IMG/VR virus record: IMGVR_UViG_3300031673_008942
Location: 1 to 64,000 of that record
Source of the DNA: a virus
Length of the DNA stretch: 64,000 bases
Direction: 5' to 3' (one strand)
Shown: piece by piece, positions 3,368 through 27,522 of the stretch
Position numbering within the stretch: position 1 is the first letter of the stretch
Layout of the letters: each line of letters begins with the position of its first letter
Translations under genes and position numbers: made by a program
The notes under the pieces: model-generated
The model's database searches: none
Told to the model about the DNA's origin: nothing
The model's input: only the letters and a program-made list of their open reading frames with translations

Positions 3368-4342
3368 ATGGCAGATACAAATCCAATTTTATTAACAACG
3401 ACTGGAACACTAAGTCCAGTTCCTATAAGAGATTTAGGAAAAGAGCCGGGTTTTGTGCATCCCACAGTAAGTGAGGATTTGACAGGACAGTTTGGGTTGA
3501 GCGAGCTGTACTCGTCTAATGATTTACAAAGTGCTGTTGATGATGGATATATTATTTTAAGAGACCAATTTGGTAATCTGATTGATGATATTCGCTTGCA
3601 GTTGGTGTCGTCTATGGGTGTGGAGAATGATGGGACGCCCCTGATTGACTGGGGTGCAGTTCTTAATTTTTCAGGAGCTATTAGTGTTGCAACTGGTGCA
3701 ACGGGTGGACGAGTTAATTTAGTTGTTGCTGATGGTGCGACTGGGTCTCAAGGACCTCTAGGATTGCAAGGATTTGAAGGAAGTCAAGGTCCGCTCGGCT
3801 TACAGGGATTTACAGGCGTGCAGGGTAATGCTGGACAGGATGGCGTTCAGGGTGCTCAAGGCATTCAAGGTATAACTGGACCCTCTTTGACAGCTAGTGA
3901 AATTATTAGCGGGGTAACTGGAATACCTGTTGCTATTGCTGTTGCAACAGCAGAGGAAGAAGCCTCCACAACTTCTACTACTGAATTTGTAGAGAAAATG
4001 CGTTTAGGCTGGGTTCCGAATGGTACGTCTCATTATTATCTTGAGTGGTATTTTGAACATACTGTTGACACTGCTTCTCGTTTAGTGGAGACTCGTGTTC
4101 GATTGGATGATACTTGGGTTTTAGGTTCGGATATATTTGAGGCATCTAGTGCTAATGCTTATTCAATGCGTTCGGGATGGCTCATTACTGGCCCTGTTGC
4201 TATTACTGGACCAACTGGTGCGACAGGAAGAATAATTGATATGGATTTCCGTAGGTTTCCCGGTGGTGGTGGTAATGCCACAGTGCGGATAAGGCGTGCT
4301 CGTATTAGAATTAGTGAAATAAGCGGTGAGGGGGCTAACTAA
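3368..4342 (+). CDS. Virion protein with short collagen-like segment
   Basis: Central GXQ triplets; tightly coupled to the fibre gene. Confidence 0.65.
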
Positions 4343-22598: not shown

Positions 22599-22977
22599 TG
22601 AAAAGAGAAAGTTTAAGAAGCGGAAGGCCAGAGAGAAGGATAAGAAGGGGAAATCCCCTAATAAGAAGTATCGTTTTCGACTGGAGGCTTTTGTGGATGA
22701 TAAGTGGAGGGCCTATGAGCTCTTCTCCAATAAGGAGGAGATGGAGTCCTATGTGGATTCGGTTGAAAAGGTCCGGAAGGAGGGAAAGACGAGAATCTTT
22801 GATGGGCGTGTTATTGACTTGAAGACCAATAAATATGTTAAATTTATAGAGCGTTTTGACCCTATGTCTATTGCTGCTAATGATTTGGATGATGTTAAGA
22901 ATATAAAGAGTTCTAGAAGGCCGATTACGAACAGTGCGGTTGATGATGTGTCTCAGTTGGGTCTGAAAGATGATTAG
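22588..22977 (+). CDS. Hypothetical protein
   Basis: Overlap-coupled ORF. Confidence 0.5.
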   Translation: MKNSEKRKFKKRKAREKDKKGKSPNKKYRFRLEAFVDDKWRAYELFSNKEEMESYVDSVEKVRKEGKTRIFDGRVIDLKTNKYVKFIERFDPMSIAANDLDDVKNIKSSRRPITNSAVDDVSQLGLKDD

Positions 22978-23491
22978 AGCTTATGCAGGAATTGGTAGTA
23001 GAGATGTAACGGTTGATGAGAAAGCCAGAATGAATAAGTTGGCTTCAGAGTTAAGTGACGAGGGCTGGTATCTTTATTCGGGTCATGCCGATGGTTCTGA
23101 TTATGCGTTTGAGTATGGGTCAGATAGGGATAAGGCTGTGATTTGGCTTCCATGGGAGGGCTTTAATGGTCCAACTGAGGCTAAGTATTGGTACGTGGTG
23201 GGTGATAATGTCAAGGCTCAGGAGTCTGTAGATGAATATCATCCTTCTCCCAAGCGACTGGGAAGACCTGGACGAGCTTTGATGGCAAGGAATTATTATC
23301 AGATTATGGGGGATGGTGATAGGTGGCCAGTGGTTTCCTTTGTGGTGTGTTGTTCTGAGCCAGATAGAGGGGGAGGCGTTAAGGGAGGAACTGGTCAGGC
23401 AGTGAGGATGGCTATGGATAAAGGAATCCCGGTATTCAATTTGAGAGTGTTAGGTCTTGATGAAGTGAGAGATAAAATAAATAAAATTTGA
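22970..23491 (+). CDS. SLOG-superfamily (DprA-like) protein
   Basis: YAGIGSR, LYSGHADGSD.AFE, ARN..QI, GGTGQAVRMA..KGIPVFNL. Confidence 0.8.
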   Translation: MIRAYAGIGSRDVTVDEKARMNKLASELSDEGWYLYSGHADGSDYAFEYGSDRDKAVIWLPWEGFNGPTEAKYWYVVGDNVKAQESVDEYHPSPKRLGRPGRALMARNYYQIMGDGDRWPVVSFVVCCSEPDRGGGVKGGTGQAVRMAMDKGIPVFNLRVLGLDEVRDKINKI

Positions 23492-23510
23492 AATATTGAT
23501 ACAAAAGTAT

Positions 23511-23538
23511 CTGATTTTTTCGTACAATAGGTTATAAT
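23511..23538 (+). promoter_or_regulatory. Putative sigma70-type promoter for the RNA operon
   Basis: CTGATT-N16-TATAAT about 30 nt upstream of the first ncRNA. Confidence 0.45.
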
Positions 23539-23552
23539 ACATTTAAGAATGG

Positions 23553-23565
23553 TGTTCTTTGAAAA
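23553..23565 (+). promoter_or_regulatory. rrn-type boxA antitermination element
   Basis: TGTTCTTTGAAAA between the promoter and the first structured RNA. Confidence 0.6.
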
Positions 23566-23568
23566 TTT

Positions 23569-23771
23569 AATAGTACGCTTCGGAAGAGAGTTGCTTCTGA
23601 ATAACGGACCTAAGGTAGCGAATATGCTCACCCTAACAATTCGGTTGAGGGTGGCTAGCGACATCCATGTATAGGGAAACCAAAGTGGAGAGACCGGTGC
23701 CGTAAACCCTTCGGGGCACGGTAAACGTAGACCACACAAGACATAAACTCTTTTTGATTATTGGTACTATT
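23569..23771 (+). ncRNA. Y-RNA-like ncRNA 1 (~200 nt)
   Basis: Terminal stem AAUAGUAC/GUACUAUU, internal loop GCU/UUAUUG, upper stem UCGGAAGAGAGUU/AACUCUUUUUGA; internal hairpins incl. UUCG and GAAA tetraloops; Ro60 gene downstream. Confidence 0.7.
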
Positions 23772-23781
23772 TTTATATTTT

Positions 23782-23977
23782 TTGATACGCTTCAAGAAGG
23801 AGATACTTCTACACTAGGAAACGAGAAGCTCAATAGATACTGAAGTGCTGAAGTGCTTAGGCACGGTATCTTCTCCACATGGAGGAGCAGGTGGCATATA
23901 AGTCATCTTTTAAGGCGTGAGTTAAGAAGATTGCCGACTCACAAGCAAATGAGACTCTTTTTGATTATTGGTATCAA
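23782..23977 (+). ncRNA. Y-RNA-like ncRNA 2 (~196 nt)
   Basis: Terminal stem UUGAUAC/GUAUCAA (covaries with copy 1), same internal loop and identical 20-nt 3' segment; different internal hairpins. Confidence 0.7.
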
Positions 23978-23985
23978 TTTATTTT

Positions 23986-24061
23986 TCAGTTAACTAGGTC
24001 CTCGCATGACCGTCCCGATGATAAGAGCAAAGGTCGTTAATATTGTCGCCTGGTTGGCTGA
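23986..24061 (+). ncRNA. Unassigned 76-nt structured small RNA
   Basis: 13-bp closing stem UCAGUUAACUAGG/CCUGGUUGGCUGA with inner AUGACC/GGUCGU stem; lies between two RNA genes. Confidence 0.5.
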
Positions 24062-24074
24062 TTTCCCCAATTTT

Positions 24075-24428
24075 GGGGGTGACCAGGATTCGACTGTTTG
24101 GTAGGATTCAAAGTTGCATGCCGAGGATGATAGTTGGCCTCGTAAAACATCTGTCAAAAACATAATTGCAAAAAATATTCTTGCATTTCCTGGGCTTGCT
24201 CAGGAAAAATTAGCTGCATAAGCTACGCCTTTTAGCCCTATGAGGTGTCGTCAATGGGTTCGAGATTAGGATAACTCCCATAAATCCTTCCTTGTAAAGA
24301 ATGGGATGGCTCTTTGGAGGGTTTGCCTTTTCCAATAAGAAGAGCGAGATAGGAATAAAGGAGAAGCATGTAGCGAGCTTTGTTGAAAGTCTCTCAGGAC
24401 GGGGGTTCGATTCCCCCCACCTCCACCA
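24075..24428 (+). ncRNA. ssrA: tmRNA; tag ORF 24168-24221 encodes (A)AKNILAFPGLAQEKLAA
   Basis: 5' GGGGGTGA..GGATTCGAC; 3' T-arm GGGGGTTCGATTCCCCC then CACCTCCACCA; G3:U alanine identity pair; tag ends in LAA-stop. Confidence 0.95.
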
Positions 24429-24460
24429 ATTTTTAAGTAAAGAAGAGGAAACTATATTAG

Positions 24461-25192
24461 ATGAAGTTGTTAGATGGGACGGTTTTAGAGAATTCTAAAA
24501 TTCTTAATTCTGATGATATTGAATGTTATGCTGACTCATTTAAAGATGGATTTGTTGTTATTGATAATATCCTTTGTAATGAGGTGGCAGAAGAACTTTA
24601 TCATTTTTTAAATGTTACGATGTCTGAAGTTCAGTGGTGGTATAGGGCTTTTAACTACGTGGGAACAGCAGAATACTATATTGAGAAGGCTTTTAACGAG
24701 GGCTCGATAAAGACAGCCTGTGAAAGATTGGATAAAGTCAGTGGTAAAGAAGGATTTTTCTATACTTTCAGGCGAACCCTTGAGAATCATTATGAGCATT
24801 GTGCTTGCGTCTATTGCGAATTTTTACCATTTTTAAGAAGTCCTGAATTGTTGGGCTTTATCTCCAAGGTGATTGGGGAAGAGGTTACGTCTCCTAAAGA
24901 GGTCTTTGCTAATTACTATGGTAAGGGAGATTTTTTGAATGCTCATCATGATGGAATGAAGGGAAAGATTGGGTTCGTCCTTTATTTGACCAAGAATTGG
25001 AAGCCTCAGTATGGTGGTAACCTTCATTTTCTTACAGAAGACTGGCTCACGATAAAAGAAGTAATGGTGCCTGGATTTAATACATTATTGATGTTTAAAT
25101 TGCCCGATGATGGCAAGGGCATTCCTCACTTTGTACCTCCTGTGCAGACGGAGATAGAGAAGAGATTGGCTGTGTCGGGTTGGTTTAAATAA
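24461..25192 (+). CDS. 2OG-Fe(II) oxygenase (prolyl hydroxylase-like)
   Basis: GDFLNAHHD (HxD), VLYLTKNWKPQYGGNLHF, distal H (PHFV) and RLAVSGWF. Confidence 0.88.
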   Translation: MKLLDGTVLENSKILNSDDIECYADSFKDGFVVIDNILCNEVAEELYHFLNVTMSEVQWWYRAFNYVGTAEYYIEKAFNEGSIKTACERLDKVSGKEGFFYTFRRTLENHYEHCACVYCEFLPFLRSPELLGFISKVIGEEVTSPKEVFANYYGKGDFLNAHHDGMKGKIGFVLYLTKNWKPQYGGNLHFLTEDWLTIKEVMVPGFNTLLMFKLPDDGKGIPHFVPPVQTEIEKRLAVSGWFK

Positions 25193-25209
25193 TAATTTTG
25201 AGGAAAAGC

Positions 25210-25237
25210 TTGATATTCTCTCACAATTTTGTAAAAT
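25210..25237 (+). promoter_or_regulatory. Putative sigma70-type promoter for csp-tRNA-Ro60
   Basis: TTGATA-N16-TAAAAT. Confidence 0.4.
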
Positions 25238-25302
25238 AAACTCTCAAACATATATAATAAGCATGAAAGTTATTTATTAATTACACGTAAGGAATAAGAA
25301 AG

Positions 25303-25494
25303 ATGGAAGAAGGAACAGTAAAGTGGTTTAACTCTGAAAAGGGTTTCGGATTCATTGGAAGAGATGGAGAGGATGATGTATTCGTTCATCATTCAGAGGT
25401 AGACGGCCCTGATTTACAGGAAGATGAGAAGGTCGAATTTGAGATTGGGCAGGGACCTAAGGGTGCTTGTGCGAAGAACGTCAGGAAAATTTAA
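25303..25494 (+). CDS. csp: Cold-shock domain RNA chaperone
   Basis: [22 protein letters not shown] (RNP1/RNP2). Confidence 0.95.
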
Positions 25495-25498
25495 AGTT

Positions 25499-25576
25499 TG
25501 CGGAGTAGAGCAGTCCGGTCAGCTCGCTAGGCTCATAACCTGGAGGCCGAAGGTTCGAATCCTTCCTCCGCCACCA
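25499..25576 (+). tRNA. tRNA-Met(CAT), initiator-like (fMet)
   Basis: Cloverleaf, CAT anticodon, encoded CCA, U1xC72 mismatch, A11:U24. Confidence 0.92.
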
Positions 25577-25670
25577 ATTTAAGTAATATGTATTGATATA
25601 GCTCGCATGTTGTGAGTTAATTGTTATCGGTGGCAATTAAGCCACGCTTCAAATGAAAAAGGAGAGTATT

Positions 25671-27467
25671 ATGGGTACTATGGACTCTATTGCTCGTAAG
25701 AAAAGAGAGGCTAAGAGCAAGCCTTCAAATGCTGAAAATGCAACTACTAACCGTGCTGGTGGAGTATCTTTTGATATTGACGACCCTGCGTTGAAGTTGG
25801 TTGCTATGACCGGTGGTTCGTTTTTCGCAGAACCTCGATACTACAGTGGTGATGCCATTGTCGCTGCTCGTACTACCTCGGCAAGAGGTGCATCTATGAA
25901 GGACAAATTCGGAAAGCTTGAACAGCGTCTGAAGATTGTGGATGGAAAATTAAACGGTTTTGCCTCATGTGAGGAGCTTGATGATGTGGCTCGTGAAATC
26001 GTTGCGACTGCTATGAGTATTGCCGAAACTGATAATCCTGCTGACTTGTTGGCTATTGCCAACTGGCTTCGTAATGAGGCAAATATCCGATTGACCCCAC
26101 AGGTTCTTTTGGTTATTGCATCTCGTTGTGACTCTACCAAGTCTCTTGTAAGGCGTTATGCTCCAAGCATTGTTGTGCGTCCAGATGAAGTTAAGACTTG
26201 TCTGATGATGCATCGTTTTTTCTTCGGCTATAAGTCGTTGGCGAATGGTTTGGCTTGGGGGCTTTGCGATGCCTTGTCGGGGTTTGGTGAAAGAGGTTTG
26301 TTGAAGTATGACAGTTCTTCTTTCCCAACTTGGAAGGATGTTTTGGAATGGTTGCCACGTAAGAACGGTAAGCCATTGAGTTCTGCTGTTGCCAAGTACT
26401 TCATCACTGGTGAAGTGGTTGATGCGAAGGCAACTCCTATCATTGCGGCTCGTAAGGAACTTGCAAAGTGTGAGAAGTTCGAAGGAAAAGCATTTGATTT
26501 GGCTAAGGCTTCCTTGGTTAACTGGGAAGTTCTGTTGACTCAATTCGGACATACTAAATCTGGCAAGAAGGCTGTTTGGGAATATCTGTTGGATAATGAC
26601 CAAGTTGGCTACATGGCATTGTTAAGGAACCTGCGTAACTTCCATGAAGCAGAAATCAGCGCTGAGCATGTTGATAAGGTTTGTGCAAAGATTTCTGATT
26701 TGGAAGAAGTTCGTAAGAGCAGGCAGTTGCCATTTCGTTTTTTGATGGCTCATCAGATTATTGAAGACCTTGGTGGCGATTCCCGTCGTCTTGGTAAGCT
26801 TACTGATGCAATTGCTCAGGCGTCCAACCATGCTTGTGAAAATGTATTCTTGCCAGGTTTGACGGTTGTAATGGCTGACAATTCTGGTTCAATGAGTTCT
26901 CAGATTTCGGCTAAAAGTCAGATGACTTGTGCCGGTGCTGCAAACTCTCTTTGTGGTATTGTTGCTAAGGCTTCTGATGATGCTTATGTGATTTCTTTTG
27001 GGCAGACTATGAAAGAGGTCCGTTTTTCTAAGAATACGGATACTGTTGTTGGTATCGCTCGTGCTGTTGCTGGCGCAAATGTTGGACATTCGACCAATGC
27101 TCATTTGGGTATTGCGTGGATGATTAAGAATAACATTGTTCCTGACCGTGTTATTCTGTTGTCTGACATGCAGTGTTGGGACAGCGATGGCGGATGGTAT
27201 TCCGATGGCTCAGTATGTGACGCTTGGGCTAAGTACAAGAAGGTTTCCAAAGGGGCTTCAAAGACTTGGTTCCATTCGGTTCATATTAATGGTTATGGCG
27301 ACAATCCAATTGATGCCAAGAGTGACAAGGTTAACCTTGTTTCTGGGTTCTCTGAAAAGATTATCCCAATGCTTTTGGAATCAGAAGGAACCGTAGCAGG
27401 GGCTTCAGAAGAAGCTCAGGCATTGCCAACCGTTGAGCAGATTCGCCAAAAGTGGTCTGTAAGCTAA
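25671..27467 (+). CDS. rsr: Ro60/Rsr RNA-binding protein (TROVE + vWA)
   Basis: NRAGG, MALLRNLRN, SRQLPFRF, MIDAS DNSGSM..T..SD; AAGGAG RBS before ATG 25671. Confidence 0.92.
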   Translation: MGTMDSIARKKREAKSKPSNAENATTNRAGGVSFDIDDPALKLVAMTGGSFFAEPRYYSGDAIVAARTTSARGASMKDKFGKLEQRLKIVDGKLNGFASCEELDDVAREIVATAMSIAETDNPADLLAIANWLRNEANIRLTPQVLLVIASRCDSTKSLVRRYAPSIVVRPDEVKTCLMMHRFFFGYKSLANGLAWGLCDALSGFGERGLLKYDSSSFPTWKDVLEWLPRKNGKPLSSAVAKYFITGEVVDAKATPIIAARKELAKCEKFEGKAFDLAKASLVNWEVLLTQFGHTKSGKKAVWEYLLDNDQVGYMALLRNLRNFHEAEISAEHVDKVCAKISDLEEVRKSRQLPFRFLMAHQIIEDLGGDSRRLGKLTDAIAQASNHACENVFLPGLTVVMADNSGSMSSQISAKSQMTCAGAANSLCGIVAKASDDAYVISFGQTMKEVRFSKNTDTVVGIARAVAGANVGHSTNAHLGIAWMIKNNIVPDRVILLSDMQCWDSDGGWYSDGSVCDAWAKYKKVSKGASKTWFHSVHINGYGDNPIDAKSDKVNLVSGFSEKIIPMLLESEGTVAGASEEAQALPTVEQIRQKWSVS

Positions 27468-27489
27468 ATTAATTTGTCGGCAGACGGAT

Positions 27490-27522
27490 GAGCTCTCTCC
27501 TTAACTGGGGAGGGCTCTTTTT
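27490..27522 (+). terminator. Terminator closing the RNA/Ro60 module
   Basis: GAGCTCTCTCC-ttaact-GGGGAGGGCTC-TTTTT. Confidence 0.8.

Follow-up and report, generated by a model that had tools for sequence, protein, structure and literature searches.

Within the first 64 kb (hereafter the window) of the 113.6-kb IMG/VR phage record IMGVR_UViG_3300031673_008942 lies, at 23.5-27.5 kb, a phage island of non-coding RNA genes that includes a gene for Ro60, a ring-shaped protein that binds RNA. We read it, with fair confidence, as a core of boxA-led stable RNAs and Ro60, in which two of the RNAs, here called RNA1 and RNA2, would be Y-type partners of the protein, a structure in the leader of its mRNA would provide feedback, and a 2-oxoglutarate (2OG)-Fe(II) oxygenase and a cold-shock protein (Csp) would be later insertions. 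RNA1 and RNA2 belong to an RNA family that is supported by covariation, is absent from Rfam and is linked in strand and position to Ro60 genes, and the RNA core of the island is syntenic in related phages. Ro60 and its Y RNAs have been studied chiefly in two guises, an autoantigen particle and, in bacteria, a stress ribonucleoprotein (RNP). The locus is a variant of a Ro60/Y-RNA pairing already known from phages (Chen et al., 2014; phiLo, 2025), and what its sequence appears to add to that pairing is a different docking loop, a mimic of the RNA in the Ro60 leader, and a clade-specific linkage to transfer-messenger RNA (tmRNA) and an initiator-type tRNA.

A covariation-backed RNA family outside Rfam would widen the Y-RNA class to a different docking loop, and its natural series of short and long forms helps to separate the handle common to these RNAs from a putative effector module. 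Likewise, a mimic of that handle on the ribosome-binding site of Ro60 offers a simple and directly testable feedback hypothesis. Telling the conserved parts of the island (tmRNA, Y-like RNAs, initiator-type tRNA and Ro60) from the incidental ones (oxygenase and Csp) also narrows the experimental focus.

The record is rated 34% complete, so the source phage is probably large, of the jumbo class. The genes of the window, among which are tail-fibre, helicase and other phage families, lie almost all on the + strand. A first-pass annotation of the DNA had described 23.5-27.5 kb as one co-oriented block, and all of the parts that it named were recovered, every one on the + strand, from a boxA-like leader to a terminator (Table 1).

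Table 1. Features of the Ro60 island, in window coordinates
Feature	Position	Strand	Basis and remarks
-10-like TATAAT	23533-38	+	Read from the sequence; head of the non-coding RNA run
boxA-like element UGUUCUUUGAAAA	23553-23565	+	14 nt past TATAAT; heads RNA1
RNA1, long-form Y-RNA-like (probable)	23570-23770	+	Descriptor search
RNA2, long-form Y-RNA-like (probable)	23782-23977	+	Descriptor search
RNA3, 76 nt	23986-24061	+	Fold (z -1.9)
tmRNA, tag AKNILAFPGLAQEKLAA then stop	24075-24428	+	ARAGORN; Rfam RF00023
2OG-Fe(II) oxygenase, prolyl-hydroxylase type, 243 aa	24461-25192	+	Pfam PF13661 E 1.8e-16, PF13640
Promoter-like sites	25210-25258	+	Promoter scan; ahead of the Csp gene
CspA-type cold-shock-domain protein, 63 aa	25303-25494	+	Pfam CSD PF00313 E 3.6e-22
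tRNA-Met(CAU), encoded CCA	25499-25576	+	ARAGORN, Rfam
Ro60 leader, permuted capped handle	25622..25664 (handle copy 25622-25652)	+	Covariation, model R2
Ro60 (TROVE HEAT ring + vWA)	25671-27467	+	598 aa from the revised start
Intrinsic terminator	27490-27517	+	3′ of Ro60; 11-bp stem, 7 G-C pairs, U run; strong

A Family of Handle RNAs Beside Ro60

RNA1 and RNA2 share about 25 nt at their 5′ ends and an identical 3′ 20-mer, and their interiors of about 150 nt are unrelated. The ends form a handle of the layout stem1-(G)CUUCAG-stem2-(U/A)UACUUC-insert-stem2′-CGAUUAUUG-stem1′, which recurs in the non-coding DNA beside Ro60 in related phage contigs. RNA1 (stem1 AUAGUAC/GUACUAU, 5′ loop GCUUCGG, stem2 AAGAGAG/CUCUUUU, cap UUGCUUC, insert of 150 nt) adopts the family handle structure as its unconstrained minimum-energy fold (-54.3 kcal/mol), and in RNA2 (stem1 UUGAUAC/GUAUCAA, 5′ loop GCUUCAA, stem2 GAAGGAG/CUCUUUU, cap AUACUUC, insert of 145 nt) the handle fold is at most 1.4 kcal/mol above the minimum. 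The 3′ loop of both, UGAUUAUUG, is near the family consensus, and the two RNAs differ by compensatory changes at stem1 and at the pair that closes the loop (A-U in RNA2, G.U in RNA1).

A descriptor search recovered at least 35 distinct full instances of the handle from uncultured phages, beside this type of Ro60; a first, loose descriptor had given hundreds of false matches, and nothing useful emerged from global minimum-energy folding of the non-coding islands. The inserts of the 35 instances fall into two length classes (12-32 nt and 65-290 nt). Conservation extends to the loops, which the descriptor did not require, with CUUCAG in the 5′ loop of 28 members, and the loop-closing pair covaries (G-C in 22, A-U in 5, G.U in 4). 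When 15 short forms were aligned, compensatory changes were found in 13 of 15 pairs and 92% of the pairs were standard, a percentage that is inflated because the instances were selected by pairing-aware searches, so that the variety of pair types is the informative part. None of 500 shuffles attained the observed values, and sliding the partners against each other left only 39-49% paired. The frequent G.U pairs indicate that the + strand is the transcribed one.

RNA3 has the same layout as RNA1 and RNA2, with a 13-bp terminal stem that includes 4 G.U pairs, an inner stem AUGACC/GGUCGU and the 3′ loop UAAUAUUG, but its 5′ loop is deviant (CCUCGC) and the UACUUC cap is missing. It was matched neither by the covariance model R1 (built from the short forms) nor by nhmmer, which recovered no homologue, and it is a possible third, divergent member. 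Hence, of the three unannotated structured RNAs named in the first-pass annotation, two have found a place in a conserved Ro60-linked family and the third is a candidate for it. Rfam held no family for any of the three, even at E ≤ 5; blastn-short and nhmmer found no sequence homologues of them, and the exact 17-mer of the 3′ handle had chance matches in coding DNA only. The RNAs are overlain by small open reading frames (ORFs), two on the + strand (41 and 46 aa) and one of 114 aa on the - strand, the last without a PHROG match; all were rejected as genes, and an 18-nt partial complementarity between RNA2 and the tmRNA was dismissed as chance.

Model R1 was searched against both strands of 148 Ro60-centred loci (1.37 Mb), with a threshold of E ≤ 1. 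All 111 matches to R1 are on the strand of Ro60 (111/111); 89 lie at most 1.1 kb upstream of the gene and 15 at most 1 kb downstream, and none falls inside it. In distant Ro60 lineages (27-36% identity) the R1 matches are to a core made of stem2 and the UACUUC cap together with the beginning of the 3′ loop. This core also accompanies the Ro genes of phage isolates: Arthrobacter phage Atuin and Bacillus phage G, both among the R1 matches, and Gordonia phage Neville and Streptomyces phage Quantum. In Bacillus phage G, for instance, five tandem stem-UUACUUC RNAs with the 5′ loop GAWGCGG precede gp540. On a 253-kb contig, IMGVR_UViG_3300029288_000063 (loci L200 and L236), five more handle RNAs are found between tRNAs, in arrays of 20 and 24 tRNAs; this contig also encodes RtcB, at 22691-23920.

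In three loci the inserts of long handle RNAs consist of 4-5 short hairpins with GGAAGA or CAAAGA loops (L002 5020-5110, L005 5590-5700, L006 5560-5650). By analogy, such runs resemble a multi-site protein sponge, since GGA-in-loop motifs recall RNAs of the CsrB/RsmZ type.

Kinship with Known Y RNAs

Ro60 (Rsr) is paired in bacteria and phages with Y RNAs of the YrlA and YrlB kind (PMC4201824; Rfam RF02553; Wang et al., 2018, 10.1101/312249), and the conserved motif on the 5′ strand of these RNAs is GNCGAAN0-1G in bacteria and GGUCCGA in vertebrates (Chen et al., 2014, PMC4201824). The island resembles those systems in its TROVE+vWA gene with small RNAs beside it on the same strand, several per locus, in the pairing of the RNA ends into a stem with a conserved internal loop that is joined to a variable second module, and in the stem2 and UUACUUC cap that the RNAs of the window have in common with CGAA-bearing Y-like RNAs of actinophages. 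It differs from them in the 5′ strand of the loop, which is (G)CUUCAG instead of GNCGAAN0-1G, and in the 3′ loop CGAUUAUUG, which is conserved here, whereas conservation of the 5′ strand only has been reported for bacteria. The RNAs of the window also have no tRNA-like module, and RF02553 is silent on them.

The bridge between the two loops is found in Gordonia phage Neville. An Rfam YrlA match (44 bits, below gathering; E 1e-8 in a 501-base search and 8e-7 in another) lies directly before its Ro gene, and a separate short RNA, stem1-AUGCGAAGGC-stem2-UUACUUC, stands beside that gene. Because this short RNA combines the published CGAA motif with a stem2 and cap like those of the window, the RNAs of the window are homologous in their handle to known Y-like RNAs, and in the clade of the window GCUUCAG has taken the place of the CGAA loop. 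No match to RF02553 at gathering score was found in 31 related loci, a negative that is valid because the model does detect the actinophage YrlA. RNA1 and RNA2 are probable Y-RNA-like RNAs with a changed docking loop.

The Ro60 Protein and the Copy of the Handle in Its Leader

The protein is a Ro60. Its TROVE domain is matched by Pfam PF05731 above cut-off (E 7.5e-23), its vWA domain by PF25045 (vWA_Ro60, E 1.9e-8), and the whole falls into PHROG 850 (E 1e-41), with 1455 homologues. The MIDAS motif DxSxS is invariant in 19 homologues (D409, S411 and S413 in the numbering of the 604-aa frame), and a profile of 19 homologues matches the solved structures of Thermus phage phiLo Ro60 (9KOP/9L5Y, best, E 9e-23), vertebrate Ro60 (1YVP) and Deinococcus Rsr (2NVO). 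Translation most likely starts at ATG 25671 and not at the first ATG, 25653, because the later start gives a protein that begins MGT as in 18 homologues and has AAGGAG 6 nt upstream. Related Ro60 loci came from an alignment-based scan, a single-protein scan of viral contigs having given none; a relative (P0001) on a 10-kb contig is 80% identical. Another homologue, of 871 aa (P0120, locus L133), is 68% identical over a third of the query and carries intein and LAGLIDADG domains (PF14890, PF14528), and so appears to be an intein-interrupted phage Ro60.

Between tRNA-Met and Ro60 the mRNA reads UUAUCG-GUGGC-AAUUAA-GCCAC-GCUUCAA, followed by the Shine-Dalgarno sequence AAGGAG and the start codon. 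The parts of this leader are those of the handle in another order: the tail of the 3′ loop is followed by the first pairs of stem1 (GUG/CAC), which a small loop closes, and these by the 5′ loop. About 19 distinct relatives have the element, at a distance of 0-25 nt from the Shine-Dalgarno sequence. Over 18 loci its hairpin is 96% paired, with compensatory changes in 5 of 6 pairs; as the instances were picked with a pairing-aware parser, the variety of pair types is again the informative part. In the 1.37 Mb searched, a model of the element, R2, finds only sites directly before Ro60 genes and, weakly, the junctions of tandem handle RNAs (in the window, one site at 23756-23803), as expected for a permuted handle. 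A handle copy at the start of Ro60 exists also in an isolated actinophage with the canonical CGAA motif, where AUGCGAAGC-stem-UUACUUC (also written GAUGCGAAGC-stem-UUACUUC) overlaps the annotated start of the Ro-like gene (Neville, L244 2895-2930).

The simplest reading of the leader, which its sequence suggests, is autogenous control through binding of free Ro60 to it; a processing factor common to leader and handle RNAs would account for the mimicry equally. Autogenous operators that mimic the RNA ligand of the protein are exemplified by E. coli thrS and by the ribosomal proteins S8, L1, S15 and L20. The Ro60 leader is like these operators in being a stripped-down copy of the ligand at the ribosome-binding site of the protein's own mRNA. 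It differs from them in that the copy is strand-permuted, with stem1 capped and the loop strands flanking it, and in that its role is a predicted one.

Synteny of the RNA Core

The first-pass annotation had proposed looking for synteny of these genes in related phage contigs, and for the RNA core it was found. In the close clade (Ro60 47-58% identical; 16 loci with at least 3 kb of upstream sequence), a tmRNA lies on the same strand and within about 4 kb of Ro60 in 13 of the 16 loci, and a tRNA-Met(CAU) precedes Ro60 by 70-190 nt in at least 10 close relatives. Usually the tmRNA comes first, followed by a promoter, a long and then a short handle RNA, tRNA-Met, the leader hairpin and Ro60; the window differs in that the handle RNAs come ahead of the tmRNA. 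Downstream of Ro60, genes p95, p136 and p351 are syntenic. Since the RNA core is kept in related phages, the island is a genuine elaboration, specific to its lineage, of a phage system already known. Among the more distant Ro60 phages, tRNAs are frequent neighbours and a tmRNA within 6 kb is rare.

The placement of Ro60 inside tRNA/tmRNA islands is already known from isolated phages such as Bacillus phage G (NC_023719), in which Ro60 lies in a co-oriented tRNA array with a tmRNA 3 kb away. The islands of phage G and Atuin resemble that of the window in their stem-UUACUUC RNAs beside the gene and in the co-oriented tRNAs around Ro60; they differ in order and content, the tight order tmRNA-Yrl-tRNA(fMet)-Ro60 being particular to the clade of the window.

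A Model of the Island and Its Alternatives

From these observations we infer that RNA1 and RNA2 act as partner RNAs of the phage Ro60, whose docking site would likely be the handle, that is, stem1, the asymmetric internal loop (G)CUUCAG/CGAUUAUUG, stem2 and the cap UUACUUC. The inserts, each about 150 nt long and unrelated to one another, could then be variable effector modules that link Ro60 to different partners, on the model of PNPase in Deinococcus and phiLo, and free Ro60 might bind the capped handle copy by its own Shine-Dalgarno sequence and so limit its own translation. The tmRNA and the initiator-type tRNA-Met would support translation together with host factors (SmpB), and in this clade both have probably been kept next to Ro60 because they are expressed and processed together, in a single array of RNA genes.

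The closest precedent is phiRo60 of Thermus phage phiLo with the RNAs Yrl1 and Yrl2 and the host PNPase (NAR 2025, PMC12135203; PDB 9KOP, 9L5Y). The likeness extends beyond the protein, which is the closest one solved, to the two Y-like RNAs upstream of a phage Ro60 and to a model of tethering to a host nuclease. On the other hand, the phiLo RNAs were picked by their CGAA motif, neither a tmRNA/tRNA linkage nor a leader mimic is described in the accessible portion of that report, and binding was shown in phiLo, whereas it is predicted here. The Rsr-Yrn1-PNPase complex of Deinococcus radiodurans (RYPER) offers a functional analogy for handle and insert as gate and tether; it differs in being cellular and stress-induced, with one main Y RNA that has tRNA-like features, and a role of PNPase in the phage is suggested by analogy only.

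Several observations weigh against RNA1 and RNA2 as Y-type partners of Ro60 and against the leader as their mimic. The published motifs GNCGAAN0-1G and GGUCCGA are missing from the handle of this clade, neither an RF02553 nor a tRNA match was found in 23492-24075 at E ≤ 5, and the inserts of both RNAs have no tRNA-like T/D-arm module. Model R1 cannot bridge inserts of about 150 nt, so the membership of RNA1 and RNA2 rests on our descriptor and on loop identity, and the pairing percentages of the family carry the inflation noted above. Stem2 and the UACUUC cap, the parts of the handle whose conservation reaches furthest, are missing from the leader. In the 253-kb relative the handle RNAs of the tRNA arrays lie tens of kb from Ro60. 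Finally, an exact-pattern scan of IMG/VR gave good handle copies on 10 Ro60-bearing contigs and also on 4 that have no Ro60 gene, each of these a fragment (7-72% complete), together with a single weak candidate on a complete genome of 132 kb that lacks TROVE.

Some of these points would be natural if the handle were instead a maturation or punctuation signal, at which a ribonuclease of host or phage cuts stable RNAs and the 5′ end of the Ro60 mRNA out of boxA-protected transcripts, the nearness to Ro60 merely reflecting the place of that gene in an RNA gene array. Each RNA begins and ends in the conserved element, copies occur between the tRNAs of large arrays and on contigs without Ro60, short forms abut tRNA-Met (...GGUGUCGGCUUUUGAU-tRNA), and model R2 scores the junctions of tandem RNAs. 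We nevertheless hold this account to be rather unlikely. The core of stem2 and UACUUC tracks Ro60 genes across actinophages, Bacillus phage G and metagenomic phages, in which host RNases and array contexts differ, and in actinophages it is fused to the published Ro60-linked CGAA motif; moreover, in an unsystematic look, the tRNA arrays of phages without Ro60 were not seen to need such elements.

The first-pass annotation had proposed that all eight elements form one co-regulated kit, which would repair or clear damaged RNA and rescue ribosomes against host defences that cleave tRNA or rRNA. In its favour are the co-orientation and adjacency of the elements, the order tmRNA-Y RNA-tRNA-Ro60 kept in 13 of 16 close relatives though their DNA can no longer be aligned, and the nearest solved relatives of the oxygenase, which hydroxylate the ribosomal protein uS12 and EF-Tu. 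Jumbo phages have, in addition, been reported to pair tRNAs with RNA repair genes (PMC7824862). Such an integrated kit is nonetheless improbable. The oxygenase and Csp are present in no relative examined, there is an internal promoter-like site before Csp and, in relatives, another between the tmRNA and the Y-like RNAs, a tmRNA is rarely within 6 kb of Ro60 in the more distant phages, and no part is linked to any defence system. SmpB and RtcB, which the annotation had already noted as not visible in the window, were not found in the whole 113.6-kb fragment; SmpB (PF01668) was not found in five related contigs either, including a complete genome of 200.9 kb, and RtcB is present in one of the five. 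SmpB is therefore presumably supplied by the host, and the description of the block as self-contained had to be abandoned. What survives of the idea of RNA surveillance is a conserved RNA core around Ro60, without the eight-part kit; joint action of tmRNA, tRNA and Ro60, or a role against RNA-cleaving defences, would be purely conjectural.

That the repeats are no stable RNAs but act in cis as leaders or attenuators, or are what is left of a small mobile repeat, with a superficial likeness to Y RNAs, would suit the unremarkable single-sequence fold z-scores (-1.4, -1.9, -1.9) and the failure of sequence searches to find homologues of the inserts, but it is very improbable in the face of strong covariation and conserved loops over at least 35 distinct copies, of a strict strand bias and of discrete units with U-rich spacers and the layout of Y RNAs, and a mobile repeat would be expected on both strands and at other sites, whereas just two copies occur in 113.6 kb of phage.

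A more far-reaching form of the Y-RNA reading is offered tentatively, as a possibility that we consider to fall well short of an even chance: the Ro60 of this clade may read the new loop (G)CUUCAG/CGAUUAUUG, swappable handle RNAs, empty in the short forms and with differing payloads in the long ones, may choose its targets, the leader may gauge free Ro60, and the RNP may guard the translation RNAs of the phage. If this were true, the constant proximity of tmRNA and initiator tRNA to Ro60 would be a sign of the RNP overseeing or protecting these RNAs in infection.

Transcription Signals

The TATAAT at the head of the RNA run has a poor -35, and a consensus promoter scan made no call at 23533-38. 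The boxA-like element that follows it has counterparts in relatives, where (U)GUUCUUUGA stands 4-20 nt ahead of the first RNA of the unit, just past promoter-like -10 boxes; in about 10 of 17 loci the RNA that it precedes is the tmRNA, and in L001, L004, L012 and L013 it comes ahead of handle RNAs. The boxA of E. coli rrn operons, UGCUCUUUAACAA, binds NusB-NusE and acts in antitermination. UGUUCUUUGAAAA agrees with it at 10 of 13 positions. The phage element is like rrn boxA in that it closely follows a promoter, here a putative one, and heads a unit of several untranslated RNAs, a placement kept in relatives, and differs in that it belongs to an RNA island and rrn boxA to an rRNA operon. As the strand bias of a loose boxA pattern was of no use (35 vs 24), positional conservation alone was considered. 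A boxA-like leader fits antitermination on untranslated transcripts, to judge by its sequence and position. Because at least one promoter-like site is internal to the block, before Csp, the block need not be a single transcript.

Just upstream of the RNA island, at 22970-23491, lies a DprA-like recombination-mediator gene (PHROG 768, E 6e-47), whose synteny with Ro60 is not kept in relatives.

The tmRNA and tRNA-Met

The tmRNA matches RF00023 over model positions 1-374 (156 bits, E 1e-61) and has tRNA-like ends with CCA and a tag frame that closes with a hydrophobic ...LAA degron and a stop. Downstream of the tmRNA, two related loci (L005 5385-5445, L013 4880-4945) carry extra tRNA-like 3′ ends (T-arm and ...CCACCA) that resemble the 3′ end of tmRNA and may be split or duplicated tmRNA or tRNA-like pieces.

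The tRNA-Met(CAU) has a U1xC72 mismatch, A11:U24, and the anticodon-stem pairs A29-U41, G30-C40 and G31-C39; with two of the three diagnostic G-C pairs, it is initiator-like rather than a proven initiator, and tRNA-Ile2 (lysidine) may be an alternative identity.

The Oxygenase and Csp

The oxygenase bears the motifs of its family (HHD, distal H, RxS; HHD...H...R), and its nearest solved relatives, OGFOD1 (4NHX, E 9e-8) and Pseudomonas PPHD (4IW3, E 0.005), are prolyl hydroxylases of the translation machinery, with uS12 and EF-Tu as their respective targets. A collagen-repeat tail fibre of the same phage (54165-56912) is the other obvious candidate substrate. The Csp gene can be recognized by direct reading of the DNA from its codons for KGFGFI (RNP1) and VFVHH (RNP2), and it has a CspE-like NCBIfam match below cut-off. 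Neither gene had a tblastn match in 79 Ro60 loci, and neither was found anywhere in the five related contigs, so that they drop out of the conserved unit in which the first-pass annotation had placed them; both appear to be later, lineage-specific insertions, passengers outside that unit.

Further Elements in Related Islands

The non-coding DNA upstream of the tmRNA in related phages contains other structured elements. Type-P5 twister ribozymes (Rfam, above gathering) are present there in L007 (2182-2270, 48.6 bits) and L002 (3448-3524, 38 bits). Stretches of 0.8-1.5 kb free of ORFs lie upstream of the tmRNA in L002 (2680-4037), L005 (2986-4446), L006 (3524-4985) and L013 (3518-4304), and their several boxA-like elements suggest that they hold further RNA genes. 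In L005, two tandem units of about 92 nt at 3590-3720, GCCUGUC...AGGCUGA...AACGUAAGG.UACAGCGUGG.GAGGGAA.CGACAGACA, differ from each other at several positions and are a candidate small repeat RNA.

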